This document shows positions 2,442 to 48,587 of a DNA stretch of 64,000 nucleotides, in pieces. The translations under genes and the position numbers were made by a program. The DNA is from a virus, in IMG/VR virus record IMGVR_UViG_3300027785_002095. One strand, given 5' to 3'. Below the pieces are notes generated by a model. It had not been told where the DNA came from, did not search any database, and saw only the letters and a program-made list of their open reading frames with translations. How positions within the stretch are numbered: position 1 is the stretch's first letter; each line of letters begins with the position of its first letter.

Positions 2442-2442
2442 T

Positions 2443-31395: not shown

Positions 31396-32190
31396 ATGAA
31401 ACGTATTTTGACTCTCTCTATTTTGGCTGCGGCAGTTCTTGCTACTGGTTGTACTCGTATTGAAACTGGTGAAGTTGGAGTCCGAGTCGGCTTTGACAAA
31501 CAGGTCCAAAGCGGCGAATTGCTGCCTGGTTCTTTCAACCAAAGTATTGTTGGCAGCATCCTTACATTCCCAATCAAGGACGTTAACGTGACCTTGGACA
31601 ATATGACTCCGGTGGCTGCTGACAACAGCACAATGAAAGACTTTGATGCTGTGGTTGTTTACAACATCAATCCTGCACAAGTGGCCGAACTGTACAGCAC
31701 CAAGAACAAGAGCTTCCACGCCGAGTTCAAAGGCGACACTTATGTGATGTACAACTACATTGTTCAAAATGCTCGTAACGCTATCTACAAAGCCGCCCGT
31801 AAGTACGAAGCCTTGGACATGGCAGACAAGCGTAATGACATGGAAAAGTTCATTCAAGAAGAAATTGTGCGAAACATGACTGAAGAAAAGTTGGACGGTG
31901 CAATTACAATCAGCCAAGTTATGATTCGTAATGTTGTGCCTAGCGACACAGTAGTCGAAAGTGCCAACGCATTGGTTCGTAGTAAAAACGAACTCAAGCA
32001 GAAAGAAGTTGAAGTTAAGACTGCTGAAGCTGAATCGCGTCGAATGGCAGCACTGGCCAACAACTCAGGTGCAAGTATTGCATTCATGCAAGCCCAGGCC
32101 ATGTTGAACGTTAGTGAAGGTATCAAGAACGGCAAGGTTCAAACCATTGTTGTGCCCTCTAACTTCAACGCATTGATGATGCCCAAGTAA
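31396..32190 (+). CDS. SPFH/band-7 (prohibitin/HflK-like) lipoprotein
   Basis: lipobox LATGC then SPFH-like core and C-terminal coiled coil. Confidence 0.6.
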   Translation: MKRILTLSILAAAVLATGCTRIETGEVGVRVGFDKQVQSGELLPGSFNQSIVGSILTFPIKDVNVTLDNMTPVAADNSTMKDFDAVVVYNINPAQVAELYSTKNKSFHAEFKGDTYVMYNYIVQNARNAIYKAARKYEALDMADKRNDMEKFIQEEIVRNMTEEKLDGAITISQVMIRNVVPSDTVVESANALVRSKNELKQKEVEVKTAEAESRRMAALANNSGASIAFMQAQAMLNVSEGIKNGKVQTIVVPSNFNALMMPK

Positions 32191-32344: not shown

Positions 32345-32608
32345 ATGAAACAGCGCGGATTTACCCTTATTGAAGTGATGGTTGTATGTGTAATGGTTGC
32401 AATTGTAATCATGATTGCTATTCCAGCAATAGTCGGTACATCCAGCACTAATAATATTAGCTATGGGGTCAATGGCATGACTGAAAGCAGATGCATTGAA
32501 GGTTACAAGTTCATCATTGATCAAAAAGGTAATTCCCGCCAAATCTTAGATGAGTTTGGCAAGGGTGTTCGTTGTGAACGAGCAAGTGTGCCCGGAGGTA
32601 TGCAATGA
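32345..32608 (+). CDS. type IV pilin/pseudopilin-like protein (prepilin N-methylation motif)
   Basis: MKQRGFTLIEVMVVCVMVAIVIMIAIPAI: short basic leader, G-FTLIE cleavage/methylation signature, hydrophobic helix. Confidence 0.55.
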   Translation: MKQRGFTLIEVMVVCVMVAIVIMIAIPAIVGTSSTNNISYGVNGMTESRCIEGYKFIIDQKGNSRQILDEFGKGVRCERASVPGGMQ

Positions 32609-32871: not shown

Positions 32872-33112
32872 GGCCAAAACTAAAGAAGAAGCGTATGATT
32901 TTTTAGTAAGAGCAGGCATTATTCGTCCCAATGAACGCACTTTAGAAGGACGAGAGAAAGAAGAGATGATGCTTATCTTGACTCTTCTTACTCCCACACA
33001 CTCAACTAACAATCAACGATTTATCACTGAGCACTACCAGTACGGCGAACTAGAATACTCAGTTACTTTTTTCGACGAAAAAGAATACGATATCATTGAA
33101 ATCAAAACATAA
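32861..33112 (+). CDS. hypothetical protein
   Basis: 83 aa. Confidence 0.4.
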   Translation: MDFKAKTKEEAYDFLVRAGIIRPNERTLEGREKEEMMLILTLLTPTHSTNNQRFITEHYQYGELEYSVTFFDEKEYDIIEIKT

Positions 33113-33144
33113 CTCATAATTACATATAGTTTTAAGGAAACCAC

Positions 33145-33345
33145 ATGGCAGATATTATTGACGACGCACAAGAAGCAATGGAAGCGCAAGAAGAAATGCG
33201 CAAAGCATTAGCAAAAGAGTTTGTACCAATTCGCACTGGCTTTTGCCTCGAGTGTGAAGAACCAACAGAGTTCACGTTCTGTTGCGTAGATTGTAGGGAC
33301 TCCCACGAAAAGCGTGAGAAGATGAAATCCATCAACGGAAAGTAA
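33145..33345 (+). CDS. DksA/TraR-type C4 zinc-finger protein
   Basis: C-x2-C-x17-C-x2-C (CLECEEPTEFTFCCVDC). Confidence 0.55.
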   Translation: MADIIDDAQEAMEAQEEMRKALAKEFVPIRTGFCLECEEPTEFTFCCVDCRDSHEKREKMKSINGK

Positions 33346-33381
33346 GCCAAGGACGTAGTTACCGTATCAGGTAAATATCTG

Positions 33382-34593
33382 ATGCGTTTACGTGAACTAT
33401 TATCTGAAGTCAAAATTGACAACCAACAAGGTGCTGGAGCAGTTCCTTATAACCAAGATGTAGACTACTTTGGTCTGCGTGTTATGATGAAGCCCAGCAC
33501 ATTCCTACGACTGGCTGCTCCGCTTGGACAAGAGCACAGTGCTGAACTAGAAAAATACATTGCCGACGGTGGTGCCATTGGTGCTCCATTCTTAGAAATT
33601 AAAATCCCGCAGGAATGGGATGACGGCGACTATTCCAAGACTGCACAAGTTGCAGGGCACGAAGGTCGCAATCGTATGACAGCCGTTAAAAAGCTAGAAG
33701 GCGATGCTCCTATTGAAGTACACATTTTCCCTCGCGGTGGCTATCGTGCCCGTGACATTACTCCTGAATTTCGTGCGGCATTGGTACGTGGACTACAAGC
33801 TGAAAAAGCAACCAACATTGTTGCTGGGCCACTATTTGAGGAAGGCTTAGAAGAAGGCTGGAAAGATACAGTTGCTAACTTAGCCATTGCAGGTGGCATT
33901 GCCGCAGGCGGCATGGGTGGCATGATGGCCAAGCAGTCGGCACAGGATTACTTCAAAGAGCCAACTGCTGTAGTAGCACAGGCGCCAGCAGTTAAAAAAG
34001 CAGAAGCACCAAAAACGTTTGCACAAGCTAAAGCAAGCCCGGCGGCTCCGGCCGCATTAAAAGCAGAACCAAAGAAAATTGATGTCAAGACAATTACTAG
34101 CAATCCGCTCGAAGGGGTACTATTAAAAGTTGCCAAAGCATCTGGACTCCAAGGTTCCGAGCTTGCTGCATTTATGGCGCAATGCGCTCACGAAACACTA
34201 GACTTTAAACGTCTAACAGAATTTGGCGGTAGCTTAGACTTCCGCAAATATGATCCAAAATACGCCCCAAAGAAGGCCAAAGCACTGGGTAATAAACAAG
34301 TCGGGGACGGCGCAAAGTATAAAGGTCGTGGATTTATTCAAATCACAGGACGTTGGAATTACAAGCAAGCTGGCGAAGAATTAGGCTTACCATTGGAAAA
34401 GCATCCCGAGTTAGCAGAAGATCCTGCTACAGCGGCTAAAATTGCTGTTTGGTTTTGGAAGCATCGTGTACAACCAAACGTAGATAACTTTAAAGATACT
34501 ACTAGTGTTACAAAACAAGTCAACCCGGGTATGCGTGGTTTAGAACAGCGCAAAGATAACTTTGCTGATTACATGCAAGTTGCAATGCGATAG
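33382..34593 (+). CDS. GH19 lysozyme/chitinase-like domain fused to an N-terminal domain carrying the MRLRELLSE leader
   Basis: C-terminal FMAQCAHETLDF...YKGRGFIQITGRWNYKQAG...AAKIAVWFWKHRV (GH19 signatures) after an A/P/K-rich linker. Confidence 0.7.
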   Translation: MRLRELLSEVKIDNQQGAGAVPYNQDVDYFGLRVMMKPSTFLRLAAPLGQEHSAELEKYIADGGAIGAPFLEIKIPQEWDDGDYSKTAQVAGHEGRNRMTAVKKLEGDAPIEVHIFPRGGYRARDITPEFRAALVRGLQAEKATNIVAGPLFEEGLEEGWKDTVANLAIAGGIAAGGMGGMMAKQSAQDYFKEPTAVVAQAPAVKKAEAPKTFAQAKASPAAPAALKAEPKKIDVKTITSNPLEGVLLKVAKASGLQGSELAAFMAQCAHETLDFKRLTEFGGSLDFRKYDPKYAPKKAKALGNKQVGDGAKYKGRGFIQITGRWNYKQAGEELGLPLEKHPELAEDPATAAKIAVWFWKHRVQPNVDNFKDTTSVTKQVNPGMRGLEQRKDNFADYMQVAMR

Positions 34594-34684
34594 GCGGTCG
34601 TTTTGAACTGCTACAAGTTCAGCAAAAAAACTAAATATAATACACGGTTTTAGATGATTCTGAGCCATCAATAAAGGAAAAGAA

Positions 34685-34876
34685 ATGTTATCATTTTTAA
34701 AGAAGCTATTTGGGTTTGGTACTACACCAGCAGTCGAGGCTCCGTATAAAGTCGAAGTGCAAGTTGTAGCCGAAACAGTTACTGAAGTTGCGCCAGTTGT
34801 AGTTGAAAAGAAGCCACGTGCCAAAAAGCCGGCTGCTCCTAAAGCACCACGTGCTAAGAAGGCTCCTAAGGCATAA
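34685..34876 (+). CDS. small basic K/A/P-rich protein (histone H1-like tail)
   Basis: C-terminus KKPRAKKPAAPKAPRAKKAPKA. Confidence 0.45.
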   Translation: MLSFLKKLFGFGTTPAVEAPYKVEVQVVAETVTEVAPVVVEKKPRAKKPAAPKAPRAKKAPKA

Positions 34877-34878
34877 TA

Positions 34879-35694
34879 ATGTTTTTAACCGATATCACTC
34901 CACGAGTCACTGTATATGAATCCCTGCGTCAAGTAAACGGACGTTGGGCCCGTGTCAATACGGAAACAAATACAGTCGTGGAGTTTTATCATGGTGACAA
35001 TACCATTATCGTCGAAGGCGGTAATGTTTTCAAGAGTGCAGAAGGCGAAGAACTAACACAGCGCATCAATCAAGCTGATGTAGAACCAACTATCCGCTTT
35101 CTTGAAAAGATTACAGGAATCCCGCATTTTGAACATGCGCTAGGTACTACTGGCAAGACTCCCACAAGCGGCGACTTGGATATTGGTATGCCAGCAGGCG
35201 TTACCAAAGAAGAATTGGTTGCCAAGCTAAGCCAATGGACATCACAACACGGTGAAGATTCAAAAGCATTCATTCGAAAGTCTGGCATCAGTGTACATTT
35301 TAAAACACCAATTGGTGGCAGTCCTGAACGTGGTTATGTACAAACTGACTTTATGTTTGTGCCCAATTTGGAGTTTGCAAAGTTTGCAATGGCTGCTGAT
35401 CCGCACAGCAAGTACCGCGGCGCCCACAAACAAATTCTACTAAGTAGCATTGCTAAAGTACTAGGCTTCACTTGGAATCCAACTACTGGCTTAATTGATC
35501 GTGCGACTAAGAAGTTAGTTGACAACGGTGACGATCCAGATCATATTGCCAAGTTATTGTTTGGAGCAGGTGCGGATCGTACCAGTTTAACCAGTGTAGA
35601 AGCTGTACTTGCAGCACTAGAAAATAATCCCGAACGCGAAGCGTTGTTAGCAGATGCCAGAGAAACACTAGGTCGCGATGGAGTTGAGATTTAA
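34879..35694 (+). CDS. hypothetical protein
   Basis: 271 aa. Confidence 0.5.
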   Translation: MFLTDITPRVTVYESLRQVNGRWARVNTETNTVVEFYHGDNTIIVEGGNVFKSAEGEELTQRINQADVEPTIRFLEKITGIPHFEHALGTTGKTPTSGDLDIGMPAGVTKEELVAKLSQWTSQHGEDSKAFIRKSGISVHFKTPIGGSPERGYVQTDFMFVPNLEFAKFAMAADPHSKYRGAHKQILLSSIAKVLGFTWNPTTGLIDRATKKLVDNGDDPDHIAKLLFGAGADRTSLTSVEAVLAALENNPEREALLADARETLGRDGVEI

Positions 35695-35695
35695 A

Positions 35696-37201
35696 ATGTT
35701 ATTACGTCATATATTTGAAACTAGAATTGAAGTGTTAATTGAGGGTCGTGGTTTAGCGGCTCGAGTTCCTGGTGAGCAATTTAAGAATCCGCAAGGCGAT
35801 GTAATTACATTCCAAAGTTTGGACTTCTTTCCGGAGCGCGGCCAATTTGCTTCTGCTGAAGAAATGCAAGCAGAGATTGCTGCACAAGGTAAGGGTAAAA
35901 ATATTCATTGGAGCAACAATACCAATTCTGGTATGTTGGCCTTTGCCATTGCTACATTCACTGACGAGAACAAGAAAGCGTATTACCTAGGACGCTATTA
36001 CAGAACAATCAGTCCTAATCGTGTACAAAACGATTGGCAACATAAAGACATTCCCGGCGGCTTTAAGTACCAAAGCAAAGCAGGACAAAAAGAAAATACA
36101 GGCTATAAGCCCAGCGAAGTATTAACACAGTTCAAAGACAACACAGTTGATTCTATCTCTAGACAAATTATTACCAAGTTTGGCCAAGGAAGCGATGAAG
36201 TTGTTGCTTTGAACGCATTTTTAAAAGCCAGCAAATTTCCTATTACATTCCCCAAGGGAAACATAAACATGACAGCGTTTCGCGACTACTTCTGCGAAAT
36301 GCTACAGCCAATGGCATTGCTAATGGACAAGCCAATCAAAGGTAATGCCGGGGAAGCTGCTGACATCTTCTTTGGCAGCGGGGGCTACAAAGGTAGCACT
36401 ATCAGTTTCAATAATAGCGTAACAGGTGGCTTATATGACAGCTTGTTGGTTAGCCCCGAAGGTAAGCAAATTAAGTTGTCAAGCAAGGGTGCAAGCGGTG
36501 CAAGTGCAAGTGTTGTTAACTTGCTAAAGAGTATTAACGAATTAAAGGTTGCTCCCAAAGGCGCAGTATTGCTTGAAAAGCACAAAGTAGTCGTTGAGAT
36601 TCTAAAGGACATTGATGCTAAAGGCCACTTTGGTGCTCCGTTAAAACTAGCAGTAGACTACAAAATGATCAGTCCCGATGATGCTACATTTGCAATGACA
36701 TTAAAGAAGTATGGTCCCGATGATCAAATTGATTGGGCCGGCCACACTGCATTAGAAACATTGTACAATGGACGCAAGGCACGTGATATGCGTGTTATTA
36801 TTCCAATGGAACACATGATCAGTGCTATTGCTTATAAAGTTGCTGCTCACGTTAATGCCAATACAAACTTTGGCAATGCTGCGTCTGACATTTTAAACCA
36901 CAGTGCATTGGTGCAGATGTACACAAATACATCCGAAACCAAGGACACAATCAGCATTGACAACTTCAATGCGGTATACCCAAGCGAAACTGTTACAGGC
37001 GTTTTACTTGATGCTAGTAAAGCATATATGAGTACGCAGGGTAAGGGCAACTTTACCTTCAAGATTCTCAAGAATGGTGCCAAAGAAGCCGATATAGCAG
37101 ATGACGGTGATGCTACTGTTGCAGTACCGCAGCCTAAGAAAATTGTGCCTAAGGACAAGTCTGCAATGACTGTTACTAGCACCAATCGAGAGTTGAAGTA
37201 A
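35696..37201 (+). CDS. hypothetical protein with MLLRHIFETR leader
   Basis: ATG 1 nt after upstream stop (track ORF begins at 35678). Confidence 0.5.
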   Translation: MLLRHIFETRIEVLIEGRGLAARVPGEQFKNPQGDVITFQSLDFFPERGQFASAEEMQAEIAAQGKGKNIHWSNNTNSGMLAFAIATFTDENKKAYYLGRYYRTISPNRVQNDWQHKDIPGGFKYQSKAGQKENTGYKPSEVLTQFKDNTVDSISRQIITKFGQGSDEVVALNAFLKASKFPITFPKGNINMTAFRDYFCEMLQPMALLMDKPIKGNAGEAADIFFGSGGYKGSTISFNNSVTGGLYDSLLVSPEGKQIKLSSKGASGASASVVNLLKSINELKVAPKGAVLLEKHKVVVEILKDIDAKGHFGAPLKLAVDYKMISPDDATFAMTLKKYGPDDQIDWAGHTALETLYNGRKARDMRVIIPMEHMISAIAYKVAAHVNANTNFGNAASDILNHSALVQMYTNTSETKDTISIDNFNAVYPSETVTGVLLDASKAYMSTQGKGNFTFKILKNGAKEADIADDGDATVAVPQPKKIVPKDKSAMTVTSTNRELK

Positions 37202-37264
37202 CCAAAATCAGTGAATTCCATAAATAGTAGTTGAGTATGACTCTACTTTTGTATATGGACATTC

Positions 37265-37750
37265 ATGAAAAAACTTCTATTACTACTATTAATCCCAATT
37301 TGTGGCTATGCTGCCGAGTTGCAACATGGATTCAATAGCCCGTCGTTTTCCGGAATTGGTTACAGTACTCACATATTAACTATTAAACAGTTAGAAGACC
37401 AAGGCAAGCAAAATAACAAAAATGTAGCAGATTCATTGAAGGCGCAGGCCGAGCGTGATGCTGCTACAAATCCACAGGCACAGTTCGTTGCCAATCTACA
37501 AGCCCGCATATACTCGCAATTAGCAAAACAATTAACTGATAGCTTATTTGGAACAGCTGGTACTCCAGCTTGCACCAGTGCAACTGCTGGCGCAGTGTGC
37601 GGAGAGATTCCTGATATTGCTGGCAATAACATTACTTGGAAACTTGGCGTAGGTGCAGACACTGGTATGATTGTAATCACTATCCAGAATCTAACCGATA
37701 GTTCTCAGGTTACTATTATGAAGGTACCAAGCGGTACGTTTGCATTTTAA
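37265..37750 (+). CDS. csgF: CsgF-like curli assembly protein
   Basis: signal peptide MKKLLLLLLIPICGYA; mature AELQHGFNSPSFSGIGYS vs E. coli CsgF GTMTFQFRNPNFGGNP; QARIYSQLAKQLTDSLFG vs QAIQSQILGGLLSNI. Confidence 0.6.
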   Translation: MKKLLLLLLIPICGYAAELQHGFNSPSFSGIGYSTHILTIKQLEDQGKQNNKNVADSLKAQAERDAATNPQAQFVANLQARIYSQLAKQLTDSLFGTAGTPACTSATAGAVCGEIPDIAGNNITWKLGVGADTGMIVITIQNLTDSSQVTIMKVPSGTFAF

Positions 37751-38573
37751 TATGATCAAACTTATAGTATCCTTATTAGCAGTGCTTTTAGTAAGCGGGT
37801 GTGCGTCAACATCTATTATTAAAGGAAAACTAACCAATGAACAATTTGATGCTCCTGTGGTAGAACAGAACATATATCTAAAACAACAAAGCGGCGACTT
37901 AGCAGGACCAGCTGGTGGTCCATTAACTGTTGCAGTATATGGCTTCAAAGACCTAACAGGGCAACGTAAAAGTTTAACTAACATTGCAAGTTTAAGTTCG
38001 GCTGTGACACAAGGAGCAGAGAACTTTTTAATTAAGTCGTTGCAGGACGTTGGCAGTGATAAAAAATGGTTCATTGTTGTTGAACGTGTTGGCTTAGAAA
38101 ATTTAATTAAAGAGCGTCAGATGATTCGCCAGATGCGTGAGCAGTATCAGGGTAAAGATGCAAAGTTGTTACCACCAATGATTTTCGCTGGAATCATTAT
38201 GGAAGGCGGTATAATTGGTTATGATTCAAATACACTAACAGGCGGCAATGGATTTCGATTACTGGGCATTGGCGCATCAACTCAATACCAAAGTGATACT
38301 GTTACAATAGTTCTTAGAACAGTGAGTGTAAGTACCGGCGAAGTGTTAACGTCGGTTACAATTACAAAAACAGTATTAAGCTATATGGACAAACTGGGAG
38401 TATTAAAGTTTGTCAACGTAGGAACCGAGGCAGTCGAAGCAGAAGTCGGAACCAGTGTAAATGAAAGTATCAATAAAGCAGTGTCTGTTGCTATTCAAGC
38501 CGCTGTTGTAGATACTATTAAAGAAGGCGCTCGTAAAGGGCATTGGGGATTCGCAAAAGAATCAATAAAGTAA
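37740..38573 (+). CDS. csgG: CsgG curli secretion channel lipoprotein
   Basis: lipobox LLVSGC; LTVAVYGFKDLTGQRK, KWFIVVERVGLENLIKERQMIRQMREQ, IIMEGGIIGYDSNTLTGGNGFRLLGIGASTQYQSDTVTIVLRTVSVSTGEVLTSVTITKTVLSY are colinear with E. coli CsgG. Confidence 0.85.
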   Translation: MHFNMIKLIVSLLAVLLVSGCASTSIIKGKLTNEQFDAPVVEQNIYLKQQSGDLAGPAGGPLTVAVYGFKDLTGQRKSLTNIASLSSAVTQGAENFLIKSLQDVGSDKKWFIVVERVGLENLIKERQMIRQMREQYQGKDAKLLPPMIFAGIIMEGGIIGYDSNTLTGGNGFRLLGIGASTQYQSDTVTIVLRTVSVSTGEVLTSVTITKTVLSYMDKLGVLKFVNVGTEAVEAEVGTSVNESINKAVSVAIQAAVVDTIKEGARKGHWGFAKESIK

Positions 38574-38678
38574 GATCTTGTGCATAGATCTTGCTTGTAT
38601 GTTATATACTCTGGCGATTCAGAGTCTAAGGGCATAGCCCAGAGGAGCGTGAAATTTAACATTTCGCGAACTTATATT

Positions 38679-39422
38679 ATGTTTGAAAGAATTAAACTAC
38701 ACAGATACATTGCAGTATGTGCCGTTGCTTTTTATGGCAGCATGGCACTGGCACAAGTAACAACGCCCACTGGCGCAAATAGTGTTTACATTGAGCAAAT
38801 TGGTAACAGCAACAATATTTTAATTGAGCAAGTTGGCAATGCAAACAACATTGGCGGAACAGCAAATGCTACACCCAGCAGTTCCAACTATGGCACAATC
38901 ACTGGCAACACCAACACACTTACATTACGTCAAACTGGCGACGGCAATTTGAGTCAGTACAATATCAAAGGCACAGACAACATTTATTCATTGGTTATGA
39001 CCGGCAGTGGAAACAAGACAAAGTTAGATGCTGGCGATGCTAATACAAACAATCTGCGCAATTCAATAACCGAAACCATCATTGGTGATACTAACACTGT
39101 TACACAAACATTAGTGGGTAATGATATTACAAGTACATTGGCAATTACAGGAAATACAAACATTGTTAATAAAGAGATAAAGAGCAGCAATGCATCAAGT
39201 ACTGTGACAATTATGGGTGGAAACAATACACTTGACATTCAACAAGTGGACATTTCAGGCGCACGTGGACATTTGTTAACTCAAACAGTTGCTGGAGACT
39301 TTAATACTATTACTACTCAACAGCAAGGTACAATCGACACCACTGTTAATATTTCCACTGCTGGCAATTCAAATCAAATTGTTGTTAGAACAAGTAGCTC
39401 GGCTATCGTCAATCCTCGTTAA
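38679..39422 (+). CDS. secreted curlin-repeat protein (CsgA/CsgB-like)
   Basis: signal peptide MFERIKLHRYIAVCAVAFYGSMALAQV; about 9 imperfect repeats N-x-x-x-I-x-Q-x-G-N (NSVYIEQIGNSNN, ILIEQVGNANN, NTLTLRQTGDGN, NIYSLVMTGSGN, NTVTQTLVGNDI, NTLDIQQVDISG...); track ORF starts upstream at 38580. Confidence 0.6.
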   Translation: MFERIKLHRYIAVCAVAFYGSMALAQVTTPTGANSVYIEQIGNSNNILIEQVGNANNIGGTANATPSSSNYGTITGNTNTLTLRQTGDGNLSQYNIKGTDNIYSLVMTGSGNKTKLDAGDANTNNLRNSITETIIGDTNTVTQTLVGNDITSTLAITGNTNIVNKEIKSSNASSTVTIMGGNNTLDIQQVDISGARGHLLTQTVAGDFNTITTQQQGTIDTTVNISTAGNSNQIVVRTSSSAIVNPR

Positions 39423-39427
39423 GTATT

Positions 39428-40534
39428 ATGAAGCTACTGCTAATTGCATTGTTGCTTATTAGTCACAGTCCACTTCATGCAGGGCCTGCTATTGGTGCAG
39501 TGTCAGAAAATAAAGGAACCAGCTGTGAAATCGAGCGCGGCTCATCTAAATTATCTGGACTTAAAGGTGCCGCAGTTGAAAGCATGGACACATATCGCAC
39601 TGGCGGGTGTGTTAGCGATATTGTATTCAAAGATGATACCAAGGTTAAGATAACAGAAAATAGTCGCTTGGTAATCGACGACTTTGTGTACGATCCAAAG
39701 AAGGGTGATGCGGGCAAGTTGGTAATGCGAGTAGGCATGGGCACTGTTCGTTATGCGTCGGGACAAATTGCCAAACAAAATCCACAACAAGTTTCCATTA
39801 AGACGCCCACTGCAAATATTGCAGTTCGCGGCACAGACTTTACAATGACAGTTGACGAGACTGGTCGTAGCCTTGTGGTGCTGCTACCAAGTTGCAAAGA
39901 TCAAATTGATGTTAAGACATATGAGCTTGAGGAGAATCGTTGTAGAGTTGGCGAGATACTTGTTTCAACTGGGGCAGGCGATGTACTATTGTCACATCCG
40001 TTCCAGGCCACATACGTTATAAGCAATTCTGTAGCGCCATCTACTGCATTTATTATGCAGACTGTTGAAAGTAAACTAAACAATAATTTAATACTTGCAC
40101 AGCCCAAAGAAGTTGGCCGAGTACTTCGTGACGTGTCGGGTAAGACTAAACGTGACGAAGAATTGGAAGCATTAGAAACAGAGGCTGCCCGTCGATTAGC
40201 ACAGGCAGTATCAGACAAGCGAGAAGATCTTGAACACGCACGAATTTTAATATTAGAAGATATGGCAGTAAAAGCTGGTTGCAATTCAGCAACTAGCGTG
40301 TGTGTCAGTTGGGATAATCCGTCTGAATCAGCAATACAAAATCGTGGCAAAGGTATAGCATTCCGTAATACTGAAAATACGCACTATGCCGAAGTTAAAA
40401 CACAAGGCTATGCATCAAACACCACGGTTGCAATTAGCCACAACGATGTTGCAGCTTCAACTATCATTGGTGACGGCAGTGTTGGCGGGAATGTGATTAG
40501 TATACTTCAAAACGTTGGAGTAGCAAAGAGATAA
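39428..40534 (+). CDS. secreted protein with FecR-like beta-sandwich block
   Basis: signal peptide MKLLLIALLLISHSPLHA; QVSIKTPTANIAVRGTDFTMTVDETG. Confidence 0.5.
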   Translation: MKLLLIALLLISHSPLHAGPAIGAVSENKGTSCEIERGSSKLSGLKGAAVESMDTYRTGGCVSDIVFKDDTKVKITENSRLVIDDFVYDPKKGDAGKLVMRVGMGTVRYASGQIAKQNPQQVSIKTPTANIAVRGTDFTMTVDETGRSLVVLLPSCKDQIDVKTYELEENRCRVGEILVSTGAGDVLLSHPFQATYVISNSVAPSTAFIMQTVESKLNNNLILAQPKEVGRVLRDVSGKTKRDEELEALETEAARRLAQAVSDKREDLEHARILILEDMAVKAGCNSATSVCVSWDNPSESAIQNRGKGIAFRNTENTHYAEVKTQGYASNTTVAISHNDVAASTIIGDGSVGGNVISILQNVGVAKR

Positions 40535-40697
40535 TGGGCGAGCTACATCTGTTACACATGTATCAGGCCTGGCAGCAAGGCAATGATAACTATGCACGTG
40601 ATTGGCAAAGATTTGTCAGTCTGGCCGCAGTATGGAACAATACATCGTCGGACAACCTGCTATGTGAATTGAAAAAGTACAATTGGTTCAAAACATG
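40533..40697 (+). CDS. small coupled ORF (54 aa)
   Basis: TAATGG overlap with upstream stop and ATGA overlap with the downstream start. Confidence 0.25.
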
Positions 40698-41627
40698 AAA
40701 CTTTTATTTTGTTGGATACTGATGTTTGTTACATCATTGAGCACCGCAGCTACAGTGTCACAGGCAATGAATGTAAGCAGCCAGGGCAGCGACTACATAT
40801 TTGTTTATCGTGGTAATAACCCAACCGAATTTGATGCGCTGATAGCATATAATCCAGTTGGATGGACTGCTACATGTAGCTCAGGGCAGGCATGCACAGG
40901 ACAAACAGCTACAATTATTAGTTGGGCAAGACCGGATCCAGATTACTTGTTTTTATACACAAAGAACAGCGACGGCACTGCATATATTCCCTCTTCTGGT
41001 GCATATTATTCATTCTCAAGTCCACCTGCTGCATGTTGCAGTGCTGGATCACCATCTGTCTTTGTGCCAAACAGCTATAATACAACTCGACTACAAACAT
41101 ATAATAGTAGGCCCATTGACCAGCGTAATGCGCAGATATACATTGAACAAATTGGATCAAATAATATCACTACAATTGAGCAGACCGGGACTAAAGATAA
41201 CCATGCAGAGTACGCCAGCAATGGTAATAACAATACTGTAAACATTTTACAAACAGGCGATGCTACTACCTCAAACTACACAGATCTTGGAATAATTGGC
41301 AATGCCAATACAGTGTCAATTACGCAACAAAGCACGGGCGGAATCAAAGGTGCGTTTGTAAAAATAAATGACAACAACAATAGCTTATTATTATCACAAA
41401 AAGATAGCGGTAGCCATTATGCAGAAGTAACACTAAGCGGCAGCAACAAGAATGTAGATATTTTACAGCAAGGTTCTGCAGGCCATGTGGCAAGTGTAGG
41501 CCTAACTGGAAATCCAACTGATTTAAGTTTAACACAATCTGGCTCAACACAGCACTTCTACAGCATACAATTCAATTGTGCCACAGCAGGTGGTTGCGCT
41601 AAGATTACAGTCCAACAAGGACAGTAA
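40683..41627 (+). CDS. secreted curlin-repeat protein 2
   Basis: signal peptide MKLLFCWILMFVTSLSTAATVSQA; repeats NAQIYIEQIGSNN, ITTIEQTGTKDN, NTVNILQTGDAT, NTVSITQQSTGG, VDILQQGSAG, LSLTQSGSTQ; likely ATG at ~40695. Confidence 0.6.
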   Translation: MVQNMKLLFCWILMFVTSLSTAATVSQAMNVSSQGSDYIFVYRGNNPTEFDALIAYNPVGWTATCSSGQACTGQTATIISWARPDPDYLFLYTKNSDGTAYIPSSGAYYSFSSPPAACCSAGSPSVFVPNSYNTTRLQTYNSRPIDQRNAQIYIEQIGSNNITTIEQTGTKDNHAEYASNGNNNTVNILQTGDATTSNYTDLGIIGNANTVSITQQSTGGIKGAFVKINDNNNSLLLSQKDSGSHYAEVTLSGSNKNVDILQQGSAGHVASVGLTGNPTDLSLTQSGSTQHFYSIQFNCATAGGCAKITVQQGQ

Positions 41628-41643
41628 GCTAAATATCTATACT

Positions 41644-43638
41644 ATGAAACTACGAGATTCCAACCCACAAAATAATAGATTAGCTGAACAACAGCTAGAC
41701 GAAATCAACATGAGCCCGTCAAGTCTAAAGCAATTGGCCAGCAAGATCAATGCTCGAGCAGGTATGGAATTTGAAATGATTGTACCTGGTGCTCAAAGTG
41801 ATGATGATGATGACGACTGGGAAGCTGATTACGATAACGATGAACGTACACGTAGCTTTTCAGACATTGAAGAATTCTTCAATGATGGCGACTACAACAG
41901 CCGTGATCAAGTTCAACGCTTGATTGAAAAATTACAAGAACGCTATTACGAGTGGGAAAGCGAAAAGATTGACGAAGACTGGAGCAAAGACGGGGAAGAT
42001 TACTTACGTGATTGGATCAACAATAACGAGTGGGTAGAAGAAGATAAAATCCGCGAACATTTAGAATCACAAGGGTTAGATGAAGAAGCTGTGGATGCTG
42101 CAATGGCTGCTGGTAATAGTGCGCCGCGTTACACCAAATTGGATGCACAACAGGCTGCTCGTGAAGCAGACGAAAATTACAATCACTACATGGAAGCAAA
42201 GAGTGCTACTGATGATGAATTTGAAGAATTAGTCACAACTGAATGGGAAAGCAACGGCAGCATGTACGACTCTGCGTTAGACGAGTACCGTGAAGAAAAT
42301 CAAGGTACCGCAGATGAAGGTGACTTCTTAGAAGATGCCAGGTACCGCTACATGAGTGATATTTCGGGAGAGTTTGATATACAATGGCCATACTACACTA
42401 ACTCCGGGGCCAGTGGCGAAGTCAACGCAGAATCTGTTGCTGAAGATTTTGCCAAAGCAATTGGACGAGAAGTCAAATCCAGCGGCTCTTATCACTCGGG
42501 CAGTGTGGCTCGTCCTGATGCCAGTAACTCGCACTATGTTGTTGAGCCTGACGGTAGCTTAACCGCAGACGACAGCGCAGATGGCGGTTTAGAGTTTGTT
42601 AGCCCAGCATTGCCTATCGCCGAATTGTTGTCTGATCTAGACAAAGTTGCCAAGTGGGCTGGCATGTATGGCGCTTACACCAACAAGTCAACTGGCTTGC
42701 ACATTAACGTCAGCGTTGAAGGTTGGTCCGGCGACATGGGCAAGTTAGATTATGTCAAATTAGCATTGCTGATGGGTGACAATTACATTTTAGAAAAGTT
42801 TGGTCGTGCTGGTAATACCTATTGCAAAAGTGCAATGAACGAAGTTAAAAATCGTGTGAGTCAACGCCCCGAAGATGCAGAAGTATTGCTGGGGAAAATG
42901 AAGACAGGTTTAGATTCACTTGCAAGCAAAGCAATTCACTCGGGTGCTACTCAAAAGTTCACCAGTATTAACACAAAGGACGGCTACATTGAGTTTCGTA
43001 GTCCCGGTGGTGATTGGTTAGGAGAATATGCAAGCGACCCAGGTACAATCACAAACACCCTGCTACGTTTCGTTGTAGCACTAGATGCTGCTGTAGATCC
43101 AGAAAAGTACAAACAAGAATATTTGAAAAAGTTGTATGCAATTCTACAACCTAAAACTCATAATGATACCATGGCTTACTTTGCACAGTATGCCGCGGGA
43201 CAAATGCCCAAGGCAGCACTAAAGAGTTTCATTCGTCAAGCACAGTTAGAGCGTCAAGGTAAAAAACCTGAGGTGCCGCAGCAAGAACCAAATTGGTATA
43301 TCAAGAATCGTGACACCAATGAGATTGTTAAGAACTACTATGCTGCCAGTTCTGAAGAAGCGTTTAAATACCTAGAAGACTTTAAAGCACAGAACCCAGG
43401 TGATTACATGTACGGTAAGATTTCTGCTCCTGCAGCAACTGCAACGACGGGTGCGCCAACTGGCAGTGGCGAGTGGACTGGACAATGGCTAATTAAAGAC
43501 GGCAGTGATAGAGTGCTACATACTTTTGGCGGTATTGGCAATAGTCAAAGTGATGCAAACCGTATTGCAATTCAATGGCTAACTAGAAACGGATATGGAC
43601 ACGGCACCGAAGTATCAGTTGTTCCAGAGATGAGATAA
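41644..43638 (+). CDS. large acidic protein (DDDDDDWEADYDNDE) with MKLRDS N-terminus
   Basis: track ORF 41578..43638; probable start at MKLRDSNPQNN. Confidence 0.5.
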   Translation: MKLRDSNPQNNRLAEQQLDEINMSPSSLKQLASKINARAGMEFEMIVPGAQSDDDDDDWEADYDNDERTRSFSDIEEFFNDGDYNSRDQVQRLIEKLQERYYEWESEKIDEDWSKDGEDYLRDWINNNEWVEEDKIREHLESQGLDEEAVDAAMAAGNSAPRYTKLDAQQAAREADENYNHYMEAKSATDDEFEELVTTEWESNGSMYDSALDEYREENQGTADEGDFLEDARYRYMSDISGEFDIQWPYYTNSGASGEVNAESVAEDFAKAIGREVKSSGSYHSGSVARPDASNSHYVVEPDGSLTADDSADGGLEFVSPALPIAELLSDLDKVAKWAGMYGAYTNKSTGLHINVSVEGWSGDMGKLDYVKLALLMGDNYILEKFGRAGNTYCKSAMNEVKNRVSQRPEDAEVLLGKMKTGLDSLASKAIHSGATQKFTSINTKDGYIEFRSPGGDWLGEYASDPGTITNTLLRFVVALDAAVDPEKYKQEYLKKLYAILQPKTHNDTMAYFAQYAAGQMPKAALKSFIRQAQLERQGKKPEVPQQEPNWYIKNRDTNEIVKNYYAASSEEAFKYLEDFKAQNPGDYMYGKISAPAATATTGAPTGSGEWTGQWLIKDGSDRVLHTFGGIGNSQSDANRIAIQWLTRNGYGHGTEVSVVPEMR

Positions 43639-43658
43639 CATTACGTAAGTGGTAAGCT

Positions 43659-44444
43659 ATGCTAATACGTGAATTACTTGAGGCTGACATTAAATTGGGC
43701 AGCAATAATAATGCAGCTCGAGCATGGATTGATAAAGTCTATGCCAAGTACCCGCACACTATGCAAAACAATCACGTTATGGTATGGGGTTCAGGTGACG
43801 ACCAGCAGTTTGCTATGTTTGAACTTGTTCCAAGTTTTAGTAAGCGCGGCGCAGTTGAAGTCAAATGGTTCCAAGCATATCCATTGCGTCAAGGTGTTGG
43901 CTCTAAAGCAATGAAAGAATTGCAAACGATGGCCCGTGAAGATGGTATTGCACTTACGCTATTCCCGTGGGACAAGGGACAAGTTAGCCAAGCCAAGCTA
44001 ACAAAGTTCTATCGAGGACAAGGCTTTAAGCCAACTGTTAAAGGTGGCAAAGCAATGGCATGGGAAACAAGTGTGGCAGAAAGCTCTGGTGTTATGTTTT
44101 CAAAAATAATGGGACACGAAACAAGCGCAGAGGCTGCACAACAAATTCAACAACATGGATTTAAGAAATCACATACTGGTATATTCTTCAATGTAGGAGA
44201 TCAGAATTACTCAGGTGGCGGTTATGGTGGCACAGTAGTAATGGCAAAAGTTTCGGGACCTGCTGATGACATTCTAAATTTAGATGATGACAATGACTTG
44301 CCGGACGAGTTAGATGAGTTTGCGGACGGTGAGGAAATTGCTAACTACGCCCGTAGCGAAGGATATTGGGCCTGGACCGATGGTGTGCAATTTGCTGTAC
44401 TTGACCCAAGTCATATACAAGTTGTTAAGCAAGGTGTGGCGTAA
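43659..44444 (+). CDS. GNAT-like protein with MLIRELLEA leader
   Basis: VKWFQAYPLRQGVGSKAMKELQTMAREDGI resembles GNAT motif A. Confidence 0.5.
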   Translation: MLIRELLEADIKLGSNNNAARAWIDKVYAKYPHTMQNNHVMVWGSGDDQQFAMFELVPSFSKRGAVEVKWFQAYPLRQGVGSKAMKELQTMAREDGIALTLFPWDKGQVSQAKLTKFYRGQGFKPTVKGGKAMAWETSVAESSGVMFSKIMGHETSAEAAQQIQQHGFKKSHTGIFFNVGDQNYSGGGYGGTVVMAKVSGPADDILNLDDDNDLPDELDEFADGEEIANYARSEGYWAWTDGVQFAVLDPSHIQVVKQGVA

Positions 44445-45115
44445 ACTGTAAGTTGCCAATAACGTCATCTTTGAAGATTGGTCCTACTACAGCAGTCGTA
44501 AGTACTGCACAATAATCATGTGTAACAAAAGGTTAGCAGGCCAGTAAATATTCTGCCGGGTAAGCATCTAAGTGTGTGCCGATGCCCAATTCTGTGAGTA
44601 CACCACGGACTCGTATTCACTACCCGTCTTCGTACGGATGCCTTAAAACGGTGCCCCATTGTGGTTTCACGTTTGAATACTAGTATACAGGTTGAGTGCA
44701 GCGCAAGTTGACTTAGTTCCAATGCATCCATAACAACATATGACACCGAAGTTGTTTTAAAAATCGTAATAGGTCGGGTAAGGTACAGAGCCCAGAGATG
44801 CGGAAACCAAAACACCTATTGTCTCAGTGTGGCTGATCGTCTAAGCAAACATCTCATCCGGCATCCTTTACAGGGTGTCGTATGGCCACCCAATCTAGCA
44901 AAACTATTCATCTTAGTTCAAATTTTTCGTGTTAACCAAAACACAATACACAAATAATTAACCCGCAAAATTATGGAACTATTATACTTGCACCGTAAAA
45001 TTTTATGATGCCGCAAAAATATGGTTAACAGATGAACGTACACTATATAGGACTCTAAGGGTAACTACGAGTCGTTCTGGTCCAGACTTATTTGACTTGA
45101 CTTTCAGTCAAAAAT
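44445..45115. other. 670-bp non-coding island: mixed-GC structured core plus AT-rich promoter region with CCGCAAAA(T)TATGG direct repeat
   Basis: only a 99-aa antisense ORF; several short hairpins; CCGCAAAATTATGG and CCGCAAAAATATGG 46 nt apart; CTGGTCCAG palindrome and TTGACT-N17-TAAATT before the ATG at 45131. Confidence 0.35.
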
Positions 45116-47167
45116 GTGTTAAATTATAGTATGAAAAACTTTATTCCCGGTCCATTGAGTATTGCTTGGGTAGCAGTTACGGCTGTTATACTTGTGGCAT
45201 TAAAAATCTCTAACCCTGTGCCTGTTGAAAGCATTCAACTCAAAGGCTTTGATGCACTACTGTCAGTTGACACTCCTGTTGATTCTGATAGTGTTGTTAT
45301 AGTCGACATCGGCGAAGCCAGTATAGAACGCCAGGGACAGTGGCCGTGGCCTCGGCGAGACCTAGCTCGAGCAATTGAACAAATACAAGAACTGGGTGCT
45401 GCCGCAATTGTTGTTCCTGTTATTATGAGTGAAGCAGACCGTTTTGGCAGCGATCGAGATCTAGTTAAAGTACTTGGCCGCACCAACAGTGTTATTGCCC
45501 AAGCACCTACTACGCAAAACAAACGTCCTGACGCAGTTCGTCGTGGTGTTGCTGTTATAGGTGGTAATCCGTTAGAATGGGTGTACTCTTGGCCTGGCGC
45601 ACTAAGTCCTTACCGGCCATTGGCTAATGCAGCCGCTGGAGTAGGTACAACTGTTGTTGCTCCTGAAGTAGATGGTGTTGTTCGACGCATGCCACTTATT
45701 GTGGGCGTAGGCGAAGAAATTTATCCCAGCTTGCCATTAGAAGCACTTCGTGTTGTTACTGGACAACAAAGTTATCAAGTTAAAATGAGTTCAGCAGGAA
45801 TTGAAAAAGTTCGTATTGCTGGACAACCTGTTATCACCACAGACGAACGTGCCAGAATCTGGTTGCGTTGGAACAAGAACTTCACACGCTATGAACTATC
45901 TGAATTGGCCAATAAAAACGTAAATCTGCAGGGTAAAGTGGTAGTGTTAGGCTTGTCAGTAGAAGGCCTAGGTGGTATTATTGCTACACCGCGTGGTGAA
46001 GCCTGGGCACACGATATTCAAGCACAAACTGTACAAACATTGCTTGACGGTGATAGCCCTGTACGCCCTGCATTTGCCAATGCAATCGAATTGATAACAA
46101 TTGTGCTTATAGCGTTTCTACTAATTTTCGCGATGCCTAGATTGCCTTTTTGGGCAGTGGGCACAGCACTATTTGCAACCATTGGCAGTGTTGTGTGGGG
46201 TAGCTTTTTTGCGTGGAGCAACTATAGTCAACTATGGGACATTTACTCTTTAACGTTTGCAGCCATTGTACTGTATGGGCATGCACTATTTGCACGTTTC
46301 GTACAAGAGTTCAAGCAAAAGCAACAAATCAAGAAACAGTTTGGTACATACCTAAGCCCTGCACTGGTTGCTAAACTACAGAAGAATCCAGAGCTGTTAC
46401 AGCTAGGTGGCGACGAGCGCGAGTTAAGTATTATGTTCACTGACGTTCGTGGCTTTACTACAATCTCAGAACACTATGGTCGGGATGTACAAGGACTTAC
46501 CAAGATTATGAATCGTTACATGACTGCAATGACTCGCAAGATCATTGACAATAACGGCACATTAGACAAGTACATTGGTGATGCACAGATGGCATTTTGG
46601 AACGCACCAGTTGACGAAGCACGTCACGCACATATGGCTGTTAAGACAGCATTAGAAATGATGGAGAGTTTAGATGAATTTAATCGTGAAGTTACAGCAG
46701 AAGGTATACCAGCTTTTGGTATGGGTCTTGGGATTAATAGCGCAGTTGTTGTGGTCGGTAACATGGGATCTGATCAGCGTTTTGACTATACTTGTCTGGG
46801 CGATGGCGTCAATCTTGCGTCCCGCCTTGAGGGACAAAGTAAGCCTTATGGCGTTAGAATTGTACTGGGACAGCGAACTGCTGAATTGGTTCAGGACCAA
46901 TACCCGACGATAGAATTAGATTGCATTGCAGTTAAAGGTAAAACAGTTGGAGTAAGAATCTTTACATTAGGCACTACCAATATTACCCTGCATGACACAT
47001 ATTTGCAAGCATACTACCGTGGCGATTGGACTCGTGCTATTCGTCAATGTGAAAAGTTAATTGGTTTAGATAACGAACTAAAGCAGTATTACGAAAATAT
47101 GCTGGAACGTATGCGTGAAGGCTTGCCAGCTAATTGGGACGGCACATATAGAGCAACAAGTAAGTAA
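45116..47167 (+). CDS. CHASE2-sensor class III adenylate/guanylate cyclase
   Basis: N-terminal TM + extracytoplasmic CHASE2-like region (GQWPWPR), later TMs, cyclase core FTDVRGFTT...DKYIGDAQMAFWNAP...GINSAVVVVGNMGS...YTCLGDGVNLASRLEG. Confidence 0.75.
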   Translation: MLNYSMKNFIPGPLSIAWVAVTAVILVALKISNPVPVESIQLKGFDALLSVDTPVDSDSVVIVDIGEASIERQGQWPWPRRDLARAIEQIQELGAAAIVVPVIMSEADRFGSDRDLVKVLGRTNSVIAQAPTTQNKRPDAVRRGVAVIGGNPLEWVYSWPGALSPYRPLANAAAGVGTTVVAPEVDGVVRRMPLIVGVGEEIYPSLPLEALRVVTGQQSYQVKMSSAGIEKVRIAGQPVITTDERARIWLRWNKNFTRYELSELANKNVNLQGKVVVLGLSVEGLGGIIATPRGEAWAHDIQAQTVQTLLDGDSPVRPAFANAIELITIVLIAFLLIFAMPRLPFWAVGTALFATIGSVVWGSFFAWSNYSQLWDIYSLTFAAIVLYGHALFARFVQEFKQKQQIKKQFGTYLSPALVAKLQKNPELLQLGGDERELSIMFTDVRGFTTISEHYGRDVQGLTKIMNRYMTAMTRKIIDNNGTLDKYIGDAQMAFWNAPVDEARHAHMAVKTALEMMESLDEFNREVTAEGIPAFGMGLGINSAVVVVGNMGSDQRFDYTCLGDGVNLASRLEGQSKPYGVRIVLGQRTAELVQDQYPTIELDCIAVKGKTVGVRIFTLGTTNITLHDTYLQAYYRGDWTRAIRQCEKLIGLDNELKQYYENMLERMREGLPANWDGTYRATSK

Positions 47168-47171
47168 ATAC

Positions 47172-47879
47172 ATGATGATGCAATCCAATTACTTCTTTCC
47201 TTTAAACTTAAAAATTGATTCAGATGAAAAGCTCGACTTTACAAATACTGTATTACATGACCTTATTGAACAGTTTACAACATCTAATTCAGATCTAACT
47301 CACATTGGATCTAATTTAGCAATGCAATTTGCTCGCACCATTGACAATGTTAACGCAGTACTACATCCAATTGGGCTTATGGTTTACAAACCCACTATGT
47401 TTATGAGCAGCGGTAACATTATTGGCAAAAATATTCACTGTGATGGCATGATCGATCATGCAGGCAATATTGGAATGTTAGAAGCAAGAATTAACTTATA
47501 TGAAATGTCATTGGGACAAAATTCTATCGAATGGTGGGATCAGTTACCTAATACTATTCCAGTTGACGACGGAAATGCGCCTTGGTGGAAAACCCCCAGA
47601 CTGCTTAAAAATCAGGCAAGCGCACACCCGTTTGTTATTTGTTTGCCACCATTTAGACGCGACTTACGAAGCGGAAAAATAACTTGGGATCAAATTCCAA
47701 CTCCAAATTTTAGCATTGCTATATCAAGTCCAAGTGCTGTGGTACGTACCAATCTGCCACACCACATTATTCAACAAGACGGGGTGCGTGTTACATTAAG
47801 TTTGAGTATTGCATTCCAATCTGGTGAATTAAACGGTGTATGGCAACATATTCAAAACAATATCAATCAACTACAATGA
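47172..47879 (+). CDS. 2OG-Fe(II) oxygenase-like protein, tandem paralog 1
   Basis: IHCDGMIDH (H-x-D), HHIIQ, RVTLSLS (R-x-S); track ORF starts at 47115. Confidence 0.4.
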   Translation: MMMQSNYFFPLNLKIDSDEKLDFTNTVLHDLIEQFTTSNSDLTHIGSNLAMQFARTIDNVNAVLHPIGLMVYKPTMFMSSGNIIGKNIHCDGMIDHAGNIGMLEARINLYEMSLGQNSIEWWDQLPNTIPVDDGNAPWWKTPRLLKNQASAHPFVICLPPFRRDLRSGKITWDQIPTPNFSIAISSPSAVVRTNLPHHIIQQDGVRVTLSLSIAFQSGELNGVWQHIQNNINQLQ

Positions 47880-48586: not shown

Positions 48587-48587
48587 C

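Follow-up and report, generated by a model that had tools for sequence, protein, structure and literature searches.

A further viral copy of the curli-type (type VIII) secretion module, carried by a jumbo tailed phage

Curli-type (type VIII) secretion systems (T8SS) encoded by viruses are already known, having been described in marine phages between 2013 and 2022. CsgF, CsgG and a curlin are annotated in the GenBank records of Pelagibacter phage HTVC008M (KC465899, a 2013 record) and Methylophilales phage Melnitz (MZ577095-98). The gene cluster has been reported from pelagimyophages, where a role in 'sibling capture' was proposed (Zaragoza-Solas et al., 2020; PMC7029224), and curli genes were noted in the genome of a T4-like virus attributed to marine Bacteroidetes (Tominaga et al., 2020; PMC7198788). 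In Melnitz, the CsgGF complex has been modelled and a pore for lysis timing suggested (Buchholz et al., 2022; PMC9004378). In podo- and myo-pelagiphages, the viral T8SS has also been documented in complete form, comprising CsgA/B-like fibres together with FecR, an adenylate cyclase and a histidine kinase; the viral system was reported to be ubiquitous and its curli genes to be expressed in ocean metatranscriptomes (PMC9599517). Virus-encoded functional-amyloid secretion nonetheless remains unexplained, with three rival functions in print. The present work concerns a further instance of this module, located in a 64,000-nucleotide (nt) stretch of DNA from the IMG/VR virus record IMGVR_UViG_3300027785_002095, which is given as one strand and is referred to below as the window. 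The module was first delimited at positions 37265-41627 (all coordinates are those of the whole stretch), and a preliminary description made from the sequence had presumed that a virus-encoded T8SS was new, which the records and papers cited above contradict. The locus is probably best read as a copy of the described viral module, residing in a jumbo phage that is not a pelagiphage and specifying both fibres and a sensor pair. The additions made here are modest: a jumbo-phage clade of carriers, a cyclase gene, an insertion, support for true fibre subunits from the predicted fold of the first curlin and from selection on both, and a rationale for the FecR-domain and CHASE2 genes.

Within 37265-41627, six co-directional open reading frames (ORFs) occur on the + strand, all of them where they had first been placed. 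The closing gene of the module, a cyclase, lies further downstream. The products are as follows, with lengths in amino acids (aa):

37265..37750, + strand: CsgF-like secreted protein, 161 aa, with a signal peptide, a PHROG match and a near-threshold Pfam match.
37752..38573, + strand: CsgG outer-membrane lipoprotein channel, 273 aa, recognised by Pfam CsgG, alignment to structures in the PDB and a lipobox L-V-S-G-C.
38679..39422, + strand: Cur1, a curlin-repeat subunit of 247 aa, with a signal peptide followed by uninterrupted repeats of predicted β-solenoid type.
39428..40534, + strand: secreted FecR-domain protein, 368 aa, with a signal peptide and a Pfam FecR match (8e-11).
40534..40698, + strand: ORF of 54 aa without a leader, sharing 1 nt with the end of the FecR gene and 4 nt with the beginning of Cur2.
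40695..41627, + strand: Cur2, a second curlin-repeat protein, 310 aa, with a signal peptide, an N-domain and repeats.
45131..47167, + strand: CHASE2 sensor with an adenylate/guanylate cyclase domain, 678 aa, the last gene of the viral module.

The matches of the individual components to their families support the initial recognition of a curli-type secretion and amyloid-subunit module. A comparison of 91 loci was made, comprising 80 IMG/VR loci, two cultured phages and near-identical metagenome contigs, many of these being truncated. The order CsgF-CsgG-Cur1-FecR-Cur2-cyclase is kept in nearly all of the approximately 80 IMG/VR loci, and the same order is shared by the window, HTVC008M, Melnitz and the GenBank record LR797824. 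Across the 91 loci, CsgF and CsgG were each detected in 89, Cur1 in 85, FecR in 83, Cur2 in 72 and the cyclase in 58. The genes are tightly packed, with CsgF and CsgG, Cur1 and FecR, FecR and the 54-aa ORF, and the 54-aa ORF and Cur2 each separated by no more than 5 nt or overlapping, while a gap of 105 nt separates CsgG from Cur1. Leader peptides occur on the five exported proteins (CsgF, CsgG, Cur1, FecR and Cur2). When compared to a 295 kilobase (kb) relative, the ratios of non-synonymous to synonymous substitution (dN/dS) were 0.04 for CsgG, 0.06 for CsgF, 0.07 for Cur1, 0.08 for the cyclase and 0.11 for Cur2. Every module gene, both curlins included, falls within 0.04-0.11, which indicates strong purifying selection.

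The channel protein is the most securely identified component. CsgG scores 164 bits against Pfam CsgG (cutoff 20.8, E=3e-48) and aligns over its full length with the Escherichia coli CsgG structures 3X2R and 4UV3 (E=2e-42), with the lipobox cysteine aligned; this cysteine is kept in all 40 of the viral CsgG homologs compared. The NCBIfam CsgG model also matches (E=4.5e-48, 164 bits), under its equivalog cutoff of 505. While the identity of the gene as initially assigned thus holds, its start is probably another. An exact look-up of the product of the TTG at 37740 found it not to be on record, while the product of the ATG at 37752 is identical to gene products on several JGI and ENA contigs, making this the likelier start. 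The constriction loop of the viral CsgG takes the form of a distinct and tightly conserved variant, TGQRKS-xxx-IASLSSAVTQGA. At the positions of E. coli Y51, N55 and F56 the window has Leu, Ser and Leu, so that the E. coli-type constriction is not present. Among the 40 viral homologs, the Y51 position is variable, N55 is replaced by Ser in 37 and F56 by Leu in 36, and there is a one-residue insertion. A C-terminal extension of 50-170 aa occurs in about half of the viral CsgG proteins, which reach up to 443 aa, and is missing from both the window and the E. coli CsgG.

The CsgF-like assignment was upheld in part. Its Pfam CsgF score of 25.4 bits lies just under the cutoff of 25.8, but the protein matches phrog_35372 (7.5e-28), and a Pfam CsgF hit is on record for 119 of its 120 listed homologs. 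Following the signal peptide there is an invariant F-x-x-P-x-F-x-G-x-G segment (F23, P26, F28, G30, G32), which aligns with the N-terminus of E. coli CsgF, albeit with weak alignment statistics. In CsgG:CsgF structures, it is this N-terminal part of the E. coli protein that enters the CsgG barrel. The C-terminal approximately 100 aa of the CsgF-like protein are not demonstrably CsgF-like. As had been noted at the outset for csgD, csgE and csgC, no Pfam or NCBIfam match to CsgE, CsgC, CsgH or CsgD was detected in the module or in the flanking ORFs tested. These components are often missing outside Enterobacteria (PMC7029224, PMC9599517) and are therefore not universal defining features.

The two curlin-repeat proteins carry much of the argument for fibres. 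Cur1 contains 13 G-x-x-N strand-turn units, and its repeat periodicity stands above that of shuffled sequences at lag 11. The window Cur1 has no Pfam match of its own, 28 of the 36 members of its family have one, and the family profile matches the solved curli subunit 8C50 (1.4e-6). An AlphaFold2 model built with 101 homologs (predicted local distance difference test score 84.7, predicted template modelling score 0.81) is all-β with regular strand-turn units; its best structural match is the solved CsgA, and the predicted solenoid superposes on the CsgA fibril. A Foldseek search with the same model was uninformative. As modelled, Cur1 is a curli-type β-solenoid, and it is a candidate for the major (bulk) subunit. 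In Cur2, the signal peptide is followed by an N-domain free of repeats, about 120 aa long and containing four cysteines, and then by approximately seven repeats of 23 aa, with a lag-23 signal of 0.36 against a shuffled maximum of 0.19. Pfam Curlin_rpt recognises Cur2 over its cutoff (30.1 bits, 4.8e-7) and NCBIfam CsgA under its cutoff (E=2.5e-5). Its role may be that of a minor, nucleator, anchor or adhesive subunit. The Sec leaders and repeats originally reported for both proteins are borne out, but the figure of 9-11 repeats in each was approximate, and the Cur2 N-domain had gone unmentioned. A hypervariable N-domain in Cur2 was considered, given relatives of 301 aa and 310 aa and one match of 70% identity, and was rejected, as the domain is about 87-90% conserved; the difference in length arises from gene callers having chosen different starts.

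It is against this evidence that the proposal made for Melnitz must be set, in which CsgG and CsgF form a gated pore resembling a secretin or pinholin, acting in lysis timing or in the passage of small molecules, and no fibres are made (Buchholz et al., 2022). Melnitz-infected cells were not seen to clump (PMC9004378), the constriction loop is a conserved variant unlike that of E. coli, the periplasmic gate CsgE is absent, and the window holds two GH19 lysins, one of them 2.7 kb upstream of csgF. On the other hand, both curlin genes are kept in nearly all loci, experience purifying selection no weaker than that acting on CsgF and FecR and encode Sec leaders, and the Cur1 model is a curli-type solenoid whose nearest solved structure is CsgA. 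Moreover, the premise in PMC9004378 that csgA and csgB are missing is contradicted by that study's own GenBank annotation and by PMC9599517. The evidence argues that both curlins are functional secreted solenoid subunits. As the Cur1 fold and the selection on both curlin genes favour real fibre production and disfavour a pore acting alone, the latter is considered unlikely. A separate suggestion, that the CsgG pore might serve in the release of virions, had been raised for this locus and is not supported; such an exit had already been judged physically implausible for a 40 Å pore and a 550 Å capsid (PMC7029224).

A secreted FecR-like protein and a coupled 54-aa ORF had been placed between the two curlins, and both are confirmed by the Pfam match, leader and overlaps listed above. 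The FecR-domain protein also matches phrog_37870 (5.7e-68) and an NCBIfam model of the secreted LipL45/Lsa33-like type. It has a leader and lacks an anti-sigma or transmembrane part, and its environmental homologs number more than 6,600. The 54-aa ORF was detectable in 15 of the 91 loci, and LR797824 has an ORF of 57-58 aa in the same place; no Pfam or NCBIfam family match was obtained for it. The module had been thought to end at 41627, which leaves out its conserved final gene, the cyclase at 45131-47167, located past an insertion found in the window's sub-lineage. The cyclase matches Pfam CHASE2 (1.3e-43) and Guanylate_cyc (5.5e-19), and over 97% of its length it shares 41% identity with the cyclase at the end of the Melnitz curli cluster; its identity to the HTVC008M cyclase is 40%. 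CHASE2 is flanked by two hydrophobic 19-mers (residues ~4-28 and ~313-345), which would place this domain in the periplasm and the catalytic domain in the cytoplasm.

A secreted FecR-domain protein and a CHASE2 membrane protein are thus encoded together and co-conserved in the viral cluster. Similar arrangements exist in bacteria. A FecR profile scan of 185,579 bacterial and archaeal genomes yielded 15 loci; two of these, from Acidobacteria, have first an OmpA gene and then a CHASE2-HD gene after the FecR-domain gene. The 'BiofilmReg' operon of Burkholderia contaminans has also been reported to combine a LysM-FecR protein with a CHASE2 histidine kinase (PMC5192318). At eight other distant bacterial FecR-domain loci, no CHASE2 was found by tblastn, and at the six of these where the next sizeable downstream ORF was scanned, it had no Pfam match. 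Based on the missing anti-sigma and transmembrane parts, the CHASE2 topology, the two Acidobacteria loci and the Burkholderia operon, we infer that FecR and the CHASE2 cyclase would constitute a periplasmic sensor pair recruited into the curli cluster, as opposed to assembly factors.

These observations also bear on the idea, put forward in PMC7029224 and PMC9599517, that an ungated CsgG pore imports nutrients or cofactors, such as iron complexes, together with the FecR-like protein, with fibres being secondary. The FecR domain family does include regulators of ferric citrate transport, and there is no CsgE gate. However, the FecR-domain protein of the window is without the anti-sigma and transmembrane parts of a true FecR and resembles secreted LipL45/Lsa33-type proteins, while its distant bacterial relatives adjoin CHASE2 sensors and not TonB-dependent transporters. 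Two conserved curlin genes would also be left unexplained, and uptake is accordingly regarded as an improbable function for the module.

With regard to the carrier, the evidence comes from neighbouring genes, relatives and the IMG/VR classification, as the capsid, terminase and portal genes that the preliminary description had proposed as confirmation were not found inside the 64 kb window. All ORFs of at least 170 aa in the window lie on the + strand; the longest minus-strand ORF has 190 aa and is located inside a + strand gene. PHROG matches in the window include collagen-like tail-fibre proteins, two GH19 endolysin-type genes, a ClpA-like ATPase, a peptide deformylase and others, and for the ClpA-like protein, UV endonuclease and subtilase the best matches come from myovirus genomes of 178-490 kb. 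Among the viral contigs of IMG/VR, at least 179 have a CsgG that shares 65-92% identity with that of the window, several of these contigs measuring 280-372 kb. The 295 kb contig, which belongs to the window's sub-lineage (its CsgG is in the same 90% cluster), has the same order of Band_7, GH19, curli genes, amidoligase and cyclase. The module is also carried by the 332 kb GenBank record LR797824.1 ('uncultured Caudovirales phage'), in which CsgF and curlin are already named. No cultured phage was matched when 20 kb were searched by megablast. The carrier is a jumbo tailed phage and not a pelagiphage: its module proteins are 34-47% identical to those of HTVC008M and Melnitz, its relatives reach 280-372 kb, and its G+C content (GC) is about 42%, as opposed to 34-37%.

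The whole module is also found in five metagenome-assembled genomes (MAGs), labelled Legionellales, Rhodobacteraceae, Flavobacteriaceae, Pirellulales and Bacteroidetes (contigs PBLX01000006, FZLS01000092, NZAX01000026, JADHSL010000081 and CAILDT010000117; loci L092-L096). Together with the lack of an identified capsid, portal or terminase gene in the window, this could be taken to mean that an ordinary bacterial curli operon, on a chromosome or in a prophage-free genomic island, has been misread as phage. However, the five MAGs come from five unrelated phyla and the GC of their modules is 34-39%, for which reason they are probably mis-binned phage contigs. Furthermore, no transfer RNA or transfer-messenger RNA was detected in the 64 kb, an Rfam scan at gathering thresholds gave no RNA, the genes are co-directional, and tail fibres and endolysins are among the PHROG matches. 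As nearest relatives the window has viral contigs of IMG/VR and a phage record in GenBank, and bacterial curli operons are reported not to include the FecR and cyclase genes (PMC9599517). A bacterial origin of this kind is therefore highly improbable, and the initial view of the element as a phage and not an ordinary bacterial chromosome is sustained by the viral-contig relatives, the collinear 295 kb contig and the phage record.

Taking the above into account, and by homology with the E. coli system, the following working is proposed for the module in the infected cell. The five leader-bearing proteins would be exported by the host Sec pathway during infection, and CsgG would be lipidated and form an outer-membrane channel. 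The N-terminal segment of the CsgF-like protein would dock in the CsgG barrel, its remainder being displayed on the surface. Cur1 and Cur2 may then be secreted unfolded through the channel to build β-solenoid amyloid fibres on the infected cell, with Cur1 as the presumed bulk subunit and Cur2, with its extra N-domain, acting as nucleator, anchor or adhesive subunit. FecR and the CHASE2 cyclase would convert an envelope or external signal into cyclic AMP or cyclic GMP in the infected cell. The most likely benefits to the phage would be aggregation of infected and neighbouring cells ('sibling capture') or a fibre coat protecting against superinfection.

Several observations count against this proposal. 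Melnitz-infected cells showed no clumping (Buchholz et al., PMC9004378). The constriction residues of CsgG being unlike those of E. coli, the properties of the channel may differ, and CsgE and CsgC are absent. The top PDB match of the CsgF-like profile is E. coli CsgF, but at E=0.42; an hhalign comparison with CsgF gave a probability of 50% over only the N-terminal 44 columns, and a weak model of the protein showed no match to the CsgF fold in its C-terminal part. In the window, the FecR and cyclase genes are 4.6 kb apart, and capsid, portal and terminase genes were not found there.

The cyclase gene is displaced from Cur2 by additional sequence:

41644..44444, + strand: insertion inside the module, consisting of an acidic Amidoligase_2 protein (41644-43638) and an ORF of 261 aa (43659-44444).

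The acidic protein downstream of the curlins, which had been noted without a family, belongs to Amidoligase_2, with the match (E=1.5e-9) located in its C-terminal half and also on record for an identical protein. The insertion occurs in only about 14 of the 91 loci, corresponding to the window's sub-lineage, as compared with 72 for Cur2 and 58 for the cyclase. In most other loci the cyclase match starts within approximately 2 kb of the Cur2 match, and in LR797824, Melnitz and HTVC008M the cyclase directly follows Cur2. The amidoligase and the 261-aa ORF are thus a lineage-specific insertion, outside the conserved viral curli core. A few kb downstream of the insertion, at 48588-48971, there is a GGACT/AIG2-type gamma-glutamyl cyclotransferase-like gene, and its pairing with the amidoligase suggests a peptide-ligation and removal system restricted to the window's sub-lineage.

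The 686-nt gap between the 261-aa ORF and the cyclase gene (44445-45130, + strand), with its core at about 44450-44890, has a nucleotide identity of 81-86% in four relatives, as against 76% for the cyclase coding sequence. The + strand consensus fold of 44445-45130 has 115 pairs, nine of them with compensatory double changes, and many of its G·U pairs fit the + strand only. No Rfam match was obtained for this stretch, and an invariant 26-mer from it is present in only six IMG/VR contigs. A covariance model of a 168-nt core retrieved a single divergent copy, matched weakly at 25 bits, from a 372 kb contig (L090, 19757-19918), at another intergenic site 4.5 kb downstream of the cyclase gene. Judging from these few and closely related sequences, the roughly 440 nt at 44450-44890 may represent a structured phage RNA that has not been described before and is limited to the sub-lineage.

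On the opposite side of the module, two further ORFs lie directly 5' of csgF:

34879-35694, + strand: ORF of 271 aa.
35678-37201, + strand: ORF of 507 aa.

These were found upstream of csgF in 23 and 35 of the 91 loci, respectively, and both are present in the 295 kb contig, while their LR797824 counterparts have 239 aa and 498 aa. Neither has a Pfam, NCBIfam, PHROG or PDB match, including to a kinase domain, and their membership in the module is uncertain. A G-x-x-G-D-L-D-I motif in the 271-aa protein recalls nucleotidyltransferases, a resemblance seen at the level of sequence. A promoter and terminator scan of 33000-49500 gave counts 1.7 and 2.0 standard deviations above the shuffled means and no coherent operon picture. 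The gap between csgG and Cur1 (38574-38678) features two hairpins, at 38568-38596 (11 pairs) and 38648-38668 (8 pairs), which could set differing expression of the channel and the fibre subunit.

Other genes of the window have also been surveyed. Two GH19 endolysin-type genes are located at 33382-34593 and 59164-59796. The first confirms the GH19 lysin initially placed upstream of the module; it has an N-terminal extension of about 250 aa, and its counterpart in the 295 kb relative carries a LysM domain. Also upstream of the curli cluster is a prepilin-type N-terminal methylation protein (32345-32608; Pfam N_methyl 1.6e-8), which adjoins a Band_7/lipoprotein-family gene (31396-32190) and a papain-like peptidase gene (29886-30560), the group being envelope-directed. 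Towards the beginning of the window are a peptide deformylase (1947-2441), a ClpA-like ATPase (2395-4656) with best matches in jumbo phages of 287-490 kb, an S8 subtilase shared with cyanomyophages (11907-13427), a nitroreductase (13431-14297) and a UV endonuclease shared with Erwinia and Dickeya jumbo phages (16149-17156). Beyond the cyclase, two radical-SAM proteins are encoded at 55946-57436 and 61159-62622, and an ORF of 1,493 aa (51393-55874) has essentially no detectable homology.

The locus shows that carriage of the module extends beyond phages of streamlined marine bacteria to a widespread jumbo-phage lineage of other base composition. Within the library searched, literature searches for a T8SS in jumbo phages or freshwater phages, or for LR797824, returned no relevant paper. 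It is tentatively suggested that the relatives of the window, at least 179 contigs with sizes of approximately 280-370 kb, form a jumbo-phage clade with maintained amyloid export and a FecR-CHASE2 sensor, and that the T8SS might be a general trait of aquatic phages acquired through virus-to-virus transfer. If so, infected cells would display phage-encoded curli fibres under phage-controlled signalling, and the viral T8SS would have spread from virus to virus and not be peculiar to SAR11 and OM43 phages. Considering FecR and CHASE2 as an imported bacterial sensor pair would also provide a concrete role for genes previously called 'putatively regulatory'.

When compared to the known systems, the closest resemblance is to the clusters of T4-like marine myophages, represented by HTVC008M, Melnitz and the pelagimyophage MAGs of Zaragoza-Solas et al. 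(2020). HTVC008M and Melnitz share with the window the order CsgF-CsgG-curlin-FecR-curlin-CHASE2 cyclase and the lack of CsgE, CsgC and CsgD, have CsgF, CsgG and FecR in the same PHROG families, and display the same CsgG loop signature, TGQRK…AVTQG. The differences are found in the protein identity of 34-47%, in GC (about 42% in the window and 34-37% in the pelagiphages) and in carrier size, which is 280-372 kb among the window's relatives and 141-147 kb for HTVC008M and Melnitz. In addition, the cluster of the window, unlike those of HTVC008M and Melnitz, is split by the amidoligase, 261-aa and non-coding insertion and has a 54-aa ORF between FecR and Cur2. The pelagipodophages of the HTVC023P type encode CsgF, CsgG, a CsgA/B-like fibre and FecR, often with a second fibre and an adenylate cyclase (PMC9599517). 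In these phages, one or two histidine kinase genes invariably lie ahead of the cluster, whereas the 271-aa and 507-aa ORFs upstream of the module in the window have no kinase match. Their carriers are podoviruses, in which the T8SS comprises up to seven genes and takes up about 8% of the genome, while the window's relatives reach 280-372 kb.

The FecR-CHASE2 cassettes of bacteria (Burkholderia and the two Acidobacteria loci) are similar to the phage arrangement in that a secreted FecR is encoded near a sensor with a predicted periplasmic CHASE2 domain. The output domain is distinct, being a histidine kinase or HD phosphohydrolase in the bacterial cassettes and a class III cyclase in the phage, and the bacterial cassettes, unlike that of the phage, have no curli linkage. 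In comparison with the curli system of E. coli and Salmonella, the window has an equally full-length CsgG with a lipobox, a segment that aligns with the N-terminal docking motif of CsgF and two curlin-repeat subunits with Sec leaders, with Cur1 predicted to adopt a solenoid that superposes on the CsgA fibril. Nonetheless, the genes of the window form a single co-directional cluster, as opposed to the two divergent operons csgBAC and csgDEFG, and CsgD, CsgE and CsgC do not occur. The Y51, N55 and F56 positions of CsgG become variable, Ser and Leu, respectively, with a one-residue insertion. The curlin subunits are about twice the length of CsgA, Cur2 adds a non-repeat N-domain, and, unlike the operons of E. 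coli and Salmonella, the cluster also includes genes for a FecR-domain protein and a CHASE2 cyclase.

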